From a virus (lineage: Duplodnaviria; Heunggongvirae; Uroviricota; Caudoviricetes), in the IMG/VR virus record IMGVR_UViG_2541047915_000006: a stretch of DNA of 19,841 nt; one strand, given 5' to 3'. Position numbers and translations under genes: made by a program. Position 1 is the first letter of the stretch; every line of letters begins with the position of its first letter. The notes under the pieces were generated by a model. That model worked only from the letters and a program-made list of their open reading frames with translations. It did not search any database and was not told the DNA's origin. Positions 8,385-8,697 of the stretch are shown piece after piece.

Positions 8385-8430
8385 TGGCTTTTCAGCCACG
8401 TAGTCGAGAGTCGACGTTGTTTAAAGAGCC
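8385..8430 (-). promoter_or_regulatory. nutL (boxA + boxB)
   Basis: Minus strand reads boxA GGCTCTTTAAACAAC (8416..8430), then boxB hairpin TGGCT-GAAAA-GCCA (8385..8398), upstream of N. Confidence 0.55.
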
Positions 8431-8475
8431 TGCCAGTCTGTTCCATTTGGCTTCCAGCGTCCTGCTGACGGTTAA

Positions 8476-8504
8476 ATAGTACGATATGTACTTTACAAGA
8501 TCAA
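8476..8504 (-). promoter_or_regulatory. Candidate pL with operator OL1
   Basis: Minus strand: -35 TTGATC, 17-bp spacer TTGTAAAGTACATATCG, -10 TACTAT. The spacer carries the near-palindromic AGTACATATCGTACT, which also occurs in the pR spacer. Confidence 0.4.
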
Positions 8505-8697
8505 TACAATTTGTTGTAAGTTGGCGTGGTTTTTTATAACGCTTTGTATTTAATAGTGTTGTTTTTTAGCGTGGATGTATTGCCTCGGCGATGTAAGGAG
8601 AGATCAGAATTGCGTGGTTTAGTGGGTTGCATCTATTTATTTTTCAATAAATATAATTGGTTATGTGTTTTTAGGTGGGCGAACGTGAGGCAAAGAA

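Follow-up and report, generated by a model that had tools for sequence, protein, structure and literature searches.

The operators of the VT2-Sakai type of Shiga toxin (Stx) phages have been predicted before. The GenBank record of the Stx1-converting phage AP005153 annotates six 17-bp putative operators, and the predicted operators of Sakai-type Stx2a phages are given as "same as Sakai" in Table S5 of PMC4587872; the three right operators (OR1-3) and three left operators (OL1-3) of VT2-SA are listed in Table S1 of PMC10742460. Both papers credit these operators to Fattah et al. 2000. The sole electrophoretic mobility shift assay (EMSA) that we found for these operators was carried out with micromolar lambda CI, and it says nothing about the cognate protein. 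A full-text literature search with the exact operator strings returned nothing. Here, we analysed a stretch of 19,841 nucleotides from the virus record IMGVR_UViG_2541047915_000006 (hereafter the window), which represents the early region of a lambdoid prophage of E. coli, and focused on a 17-bp element shared by its candidate leftward and rightward promoters, pL and pR. We conclude, with a probability of about 0.9, that the two copies of this element represent OL1 and OR1 in a six-site bistable switch of the lambda type. The six putative operators of AP005153 could be mapped onto the window, and the six sites correspond to the operators predicted for the Sakai-type Stx2a phages.

A preliminary description of this DNA had placed a partially symmetric element of about 17 bp in the spacers of the candidate pL and pR, and had proposed it as the binding site of the repressor and Cro. 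The shared element is present, as AAAGTACATATCGTACT at 8478-8494 on the minus strand and as AAAGTACATATTGTATT at 10794-10810 on the plus strand. When the two were merged into one pattern and up to three mismatches were allowed, these two matches were the only ones in the window, against 0.14 expected, and of 300 dinucleotide-preserving shuffles, 3 produced a match of at least 15 of 17 bases from one intergenic region to the other. The element starts at base 5 of the spacer in both promoters, so that the claim of the same position stands, but it is not confined to the spacer, as it covers the first four bases of the -10 hexamer. The symmetry also holds, but the 17-bp frame had been drawn one base off: the symmetric unit is a 15-mer, AGTAC-N5-GTAyT, with centres at 8485 and 10803, and the conventional 17-bp frames of the two elements are 8477-8493 and 10795-10811.

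The two 17-mers belong, as OL1 and OR1, to a family of six sites, which we scored in a matrix scan of the window, a check of the kind that had been suggested. OL1 (TAGTACGATATGTACTT, 8477..8493) is identical to the AP005153 putative operator and to VT2-SA OL1, with zero substitutions compared with the Stx1 phage, and it scored 19.5 with a leave-one-out rank of 2. OL2 (CAATACAATTTGTTGTA, 8502..8518), which overlaps the pL -35 hexamer at its upstream edge, and OL3 (TATAACGCTTTGTATTT, 8535..8551) are each one base from the corresponding VT2-SA operator, and both reached a leave-one-out rank of 6 (of 19,825 for OL2). At the right operator, OR1 (AAGTACATATTGTATTT, 10795..10811), OR2 (ATGCACAATGTGTATTT, 10763..10779) and OR3 (TATTACGCTCTGTACTG, 10737..10753) are identical to OR1, OR2 and OR3 of VT2-SA, with leave-one-out ranks of 1, 8 and 6, respectively, and OR1 has the highest matrix score in the window (20.8). 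With a symmetrised matrix, the scores of the six sites ranged from 15.1 to 20.8, compared with 7.9 for the best hit anywhere else in the 19.8-kb window, and each site that was omitted from the matrix still ranked 8 or better among 19,825 positions. The consensus of the six is nAnTAC-R-N3-Y-GTAnTn, in which AC-N5-GT is invariant, with AC...GT in all 12 half-sites. The matrix sites are confined to the N-side and the cI/cro intergenic regions, in the tripartite arrangement of lambdoid operators, and their spacing is 32/26 bp in OR and 25/33 bp in OL. The earlier guess that TACAA/TTGTA half-site-like repeats nearby represent O2/O3 was thus partly right: the repeats at 8493..8520 contain OL2, but those at 10771..10790 are the right half of OR2 and the pR -35 hexamer, and OL3 and OR3 had been overlooked.

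The sites are also distinguished from the DNA around them by their conservation. For comparison with the window, the Stx1 phage was used at OL and four relatives were used at OR. Variable columns made up 2 of 60 in the half-sites, 6 of 30 in the five central bases and 39 of 100 between the sites (half-sites versus between sites, Fisher p = 7.5e-8), and among relatives the variation of OR2 is confined to its central bases. A dimeric helix-turn-helix (HTH) protein would be expected to leave just such a pattern, with the outer bases conserved and the central ones free to vary.

The two candidate binding proteins are encoded on either side of OR. The cI repressor (219 aa, 10069-10728, minus strand; Pfam HTH_3 and Peptidase_S24) and cro (71 aa, 10840-11055, plus strand; Pfam HTH_3, E = 4e-12) are divergent and flank a short control region with a cI-cro gap of 111 bp, the arrangement that characterizes a lambdoid switch. 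All 219 residues of cI and all 71 of Cro are identical to the AP005153 proteins, and the N-terminal domain of cI is 100% identical to that of PA4-type (Sakai-type) phages. The cI protein is a mosaic of a family-specific HTH N-terminal domain, which aligns weakly with that of lambda, and a lambda-type S24 C-terminal domain: over residues 83-219, which span the hinge and the S24 domain, it departs from lambda CI at a single position (W to L). We therefore expect RecA-stimulated self-cleavage to resemble that of lambda, and from the same similarity the dimer and tetramer contacts may be lambda-like as well. The HTH domains of CI and Cro are 40% identical, and their recognition helices, TQGGIGHW in cI and TQGAIGHW in Cro, are nearly identical, so it is plausible that both proteins use the same sites. 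Phage 434 offers a precedent, in which repressor and Cro share the same sites. The closest structure match of Cro (10840-11052) was PDB 28tn chain A, a 'lambda repressor-like protein' of 82 aa (E = 4.5e-17), and no operator complex of this repressor subfamily turned up among the solved structures searched.

We further compared the operators of more distant repressors. Repressors with N-terminal domains 46-56% identical to this one occur in Salmonella phages g341c and L, Erwinia phage Midgardsormr38 and Vibrio phage P2. In these four phages, the matrix built from the window gave its top hits in the cI-cro gap and in a second cluster beyond cI, located upstream of N in g341c and phage L. Three sites per operator were called in phage L and the Erwinia phage, and their spacing is 32-34/26 bp in OR and 25/29-30 bp in OL; the arrangement in g341c and Vibrio P2 is less regular. 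Moreover, a scan of bacterial genomes, one per species, recovered 80 loci in Enterobacterales, Vibrio, Pseudomonas and other genera. Across these loci, the density of AC-N5-GT is 11.5 per kb within 170 bp upstream of the cI homologue, compared with 2.5 per kb elsewhere. Three sites with constant offsets are present in most of the 80 loci. The outer half-site bases track the recognition helix, TQG..GHW going with A(A/G)TAC, TKG..SHW with TATAC and ..AHW with ATTAC. Taken together, the six related dyads, the half-site conservation, the co-variation with the helix and the earlier operator annotation support the proposed reading of the element as an operator for repressor and Cro, as far as sequence comparison can tell.

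In loci L013-L088, the cI-proximal half of OR2 is CAC (GTG) and not TAC in nearly all relatives, and the distances are about 33 bp for OR1-OR2 and about 26 bp for OR2-OR3 throughout. The CAC half-site and the steady distances suggest a conserved constraint tied to pRM, the promoter of cI. It is possible, though still doubtful, that the TAC-N5-GTA operator with its OR layout of about 33/26 bp is an old module of Enterobacterales, Vibrio and Pseudomonas prophages, in which a few helix residues switch the half-site among A(A/G)TAC, TATAC and ATTAC. If so, E. coli prophages of the VT2-Sakai type, including Stx phages, could be homoimmune or partly cross-immune with phages of the Salmonella phage L/ST64T types, since the helices and operators are almost alike. 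Two of the contigs with this E. coli-type immunity region, L009 and L010, are filed under metagenome-assembled genomes named Segatella copri and Bacillota bacterium, an assignment which is probably a binning error.

The promoters, which are sigma-70-like, with pL directed to N and pR to cro, were read from the sequence, and the hexamers are those of the preliminary description. Candidate pL (8476..8504, minus strand) has -35 TTGATC (8499-8504), a 17-bp spacer and -10 TACTAT (8476-8481), with a predicted start near 8469; the Stx1 phage has a better -35, TTGACC, and the layout of pL relative to O1 and O2 is the same in phage L and an Erwinia phage. Candidate pR (10784..10812, plus strand) has -35 TTGTAT (10784-10789), a 17-bp spacer and -10 TATTTT (10807-10812), with a predicted start near 10819; relatives have TTGnnn, 16-17 bp and TAT(A/T)nT, with the register to O1 unchanged. 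An alternative pR, TTGTAT(10804)-16 bp-TACTAT(10826), was rejected because its transcript would begin past the cro ribosome-binding site GGAGG. Candidate pRM (10735..10763, minus strand) has -35 TGGATG (10758-10763), a 17-bp spacer and -10 AATAAT (10735-10740), and its position agrees with the promoter annotation of AP005153. Its predicted start is the A of the cI ATG (10728), so the cI mRNA from pRM appears to be leaderless, as in lambda. An identical "GTAATAAT + 6 nt + ATG" arrangement is present in phage L, and the distance from -10 to ATG is similar in the Erwinia phage and g341c.

On these predicted promoters, the sites take up lambdoid positions, with O1 over the core of pL and pR, OR2 beside the pRM -35 hexamer, which it abuts, and OR3 over pRM, within its spacer and -10 region. 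The predicted centres of OL1 and OR1 are at about -16/-17 of pL and pR (-17 in lambda), and those of OR2 and OR3 are at -43 and -17 of pRM (-42 and -19 in lambda). In the proposed mechanism, a CI dimer would bind 15-bp dyads of the form A(G/A)TAC-N5-GTA(C/T)T. The dyads of OL1 and OR1 would cover about -24 to -9 of their promoters, and bound CI would thus exclude RNA polymerase from pL and pR. By analogy with lambda, OR2 is placed for activation of pRM, and OR3, over the spacer and -10 of pRM, would serve auto-repression, so that occlusion of pL and pR, activation from OR2 and auto-repression from OR3 are the predicted outputs of the switch. Cro would be expected at the same six sites during lytic growth. 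The recognition helix and the outer bases of the half-sites would jointly determine the immunity specificity, here of the VT2-Sakai/Stx1-converting-phage type. We infer the binding of CI and Cro at the six sites from their sequences, and likewise the affinity order, the cooperativity, the transcription start points and OL-OR looping.

Several points weigh against a lambda-type switch with six operators. The candidate pL and pR match the consensus at only 8/12 and 7/12 positions, and neither was called by the promoter scan (threshold 9); we retained both because of their position, the better -35 of the Stx1 phage and the layout conserved in relatives. The OR1-OR2 spacing is 32 bp compared with 24 bp in lambda, and cooperativity at OR in the style of lambda can therefore not simply be assumed, despite the lambda C-terminal domain. 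The helix groups are phylogenetically related and their counts are not independent, so the co-variation is supportive and does not amount to a formal test. Finally, no footprint, EMSA or other biochemical data with the cognate repressor were found in the literature.

The similarity of the two 17-mers might instead reflect the common descent or constraint of two related promoters, that is, a duplicated pL/pR core without any protein-binding site. The shared block indeed overlaps the -10 hexamer and the spacer in both promoters, and an AT-rich promoter pair shares 15 of 17 bases in about 1% of shuffles. However, four more copies of the dyad (OL2, OL3, OR2 and OR3) lie outside these promoter spacers, the half-sites stay conserved where the -35 hexamers and the inter-site DNA have diverged, and the motif follows the recognition helix across genera, which makes a duplicated core highly improbable. 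A binding site used by only one of the two proteins, Cro or CI, with the other acting elsewhere, has a precedent in phages whose repressor and Cro have diverged in site preference. Here, the helices of CI and Cro are nearly identical, as they are in each of the four phage relatives, and neither OL nor OR showed another repeated motif, so we regard such a division as unlikely.

A different question is whether the sites are operators of the 933W immunity type, which would make the prophage homoimmune with 933W. The 933W operators, for example CGTACTGAAAGTACG and TGAACCATGAGTACG, are likewise 15-bp dyads with an AC-N5-GT core, of which positions 4 and 5 (A, C) are essential (PMC3317979). The proteins are nevertheless quite different: the 933W repressor is 19% identical to cI, its helix reads SSKGVSKWF against TQGGIGHWL here, and the two Cro proteins have no detectable similarity. 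Moreover, the core is flanked by a purine here but by a pyrimidine in 933W, which also differs in its G at position 2 and in having no more than two OL sites. The features by which the 933W type would be recognized, S41, K42 and K46 in the helix and the half-site nG(A/T)AC(T/C), are found neither in the protein nor in the flanking bases of the window, and homoimmunity with 933W is very improbable. The comparison with known lambdoid immunity types, another check that had been suggested, led instead to the VT2-Sakai operators. Both the proteins and the operators, with four of the six 17-mers identical, are of the VT2-Sakai/Stx1-converting-phage immunity type. The six sites are best read as the operators of this type, to which both CI and Cro would bind.

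The range 8385-8510, to which the preliminary description had assigned the operator element, also holds nutL, which is distinct from the operator. nutL (8385..8429, minus strand) consists of boxA GCTCTTTAA (8421-8429), a hairpin (8403-8415) and boxB TGGCTGAAAAGCCA (8385-8398), and nutR (11066..11111, plus strand) has boxA CGCTCTTTG (11066-11074) and boxB TCGCTGAAAAGCGA (11098-11111). Alignment of the two nut sites gave boxA GCTCTTT(A/G), a conserved CTACGT and a boxB hairpin G(G/C)CTGAAAAG(C/G)C, in the stem of which a G-C pair in one site is compensated by C-G in the other. Both have an intervening hairpin, the sequence of which differs between them, and that of nutL was also detected by the scan in which pL and pR went uncalled.

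The remaining gene order was read from open reading frames (ORFs) and Pfam matches. The N antiterminator gene, the first of the pL operon, lies at 8014-8286 on the minus strand (Pfam N_peptide, E = 1.5e-32) and sieB at 7416-7997 on the plus strand; cII, O, P and ren follow 3' of cro. Between cI and OL, in the slot of lambda rexA/rexB, there are two cargo genes on the minus strand (8723-9475 and 9472-10029), which are probably expressed from pRM in the lysogen. This pair, 8723-10029, matches the PADLOC candidate defence pair PDC-M24, with E = 5e-10 for protein B and a weak E = 5e-4 for protein A; protein B also matches Pfam DUF1828, and protein A has a sub-threshold match to DUF6978. A terminator-like hairpin (8698-8719, minus strand) follows the cargo genes and resembles the sequence by the annotated tM terminator of 933W. 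The cargo in this slot differs in other phages that have the same cI.

Further along the pL operon, an Rfam Lambda_thermo match (the cIII thermoregulator; 5080-5138, minus strand, 88.5 bits) is adjoined by two overlapping ORFs at 5408-6591 (minus strand). From their sequence, these ORFs look like orfA and orfB of an IS3-family transposase that has entered the pL operon between cIII and sieB. The left edge of the window holds what looks like a lambda-type integrase (1-1143, minus strand), and in the late region an ORF at 16329-17471 (minus strand) looks porin-like (OmpC/Lc-like), with a signal peptide, both judged from N-terminal sequence. A search of the whole window for repeats of at least 30 bp found none.

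As the same sites have already been annotated for VT2-Sakai, the window holds an ordinary, known genetic switch, with a lambdoid operator set that has been annotated and published for this type. For the window, the analysis mainly confirms the annotation of pL, pR and pRM with six operators. What is modestly new is how widely the family occurs, that its site spacing is fixed and that there is an apparent code between helix and half-site; the conservation across the family and the link of helix to half-site would be useful for predicting immunity groups from sequence, and they leave the understanding of the switch unchanged. The sites would set the immunity specificity of a prophage type that is present in about 11% of complete E. 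coli genomes (602/5,426). The Sakai Stx2a phage carries the same immunity region, and there repressor occupancy controls induction and toxin release.

Compared with lambda, the window has the same order of N-nutL-pL/OL-cargo-cI-OR-cro, three sites per operator and an OL-OR distance of about 2.3-2.4 kb. In contrast, the N-terminal domain of the repressor differs, the operator is TAC-N5-GTA rather than one of the TATCACCGC-type sites of lambda, Cro is an all-helical HTH_3 protein outside the lambda-Cro fold family, and the spacing given above differs from the 24/23 bp in OR and 24/20 bp in OL of lambda. The layout of OL and OR is lambdoid in 933W too, and the differences from 933W are those of the recognition helices, which are unrelated, of flanking base preference and of the number of OL sites. 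Salmonella phage L/ST64T has almost the same operators (AAGTACATTTTGTATTG and TAATACATTTCGTACTA), a spacing of 34/26 bp in OR and 25/30 bp in OL, and the helices TQGAIGHWLNG in c2 and TQGAIGHYESG in Cro, but the N-terminal domains are about 46-55% identical, the host is another one and the phage is of a P22-like type. A literature search for phage L operators gave nothing relevant.

The segment 8000-11100 is 100% identical to Escherichia phages ev017, ev207, PhiR57_1 and PhiR63_2, and the VT2-Sakai-type Stx phages (PA4 and others), the Stx1-converting phage AP005153 and Stx2 phage II are 96.4% identical to it over 56% of its length. In VT2-Sakai (Sp5), AP005153 and Stx2 phage II, cI and Cro are 100% identical to those of the window, OL1, OR1, OR2 and OR3 are the identical 17-mers and the promoter positions are the same. 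These phages differ from the window by one base in each of OL2 and OL3 and in the pL -35 hexamer (TTGATC here, TTGACC there). The sequence separating the OL sites is also different, as are the genes that lie from OL to cI and the remaining prophage (57% coverage).
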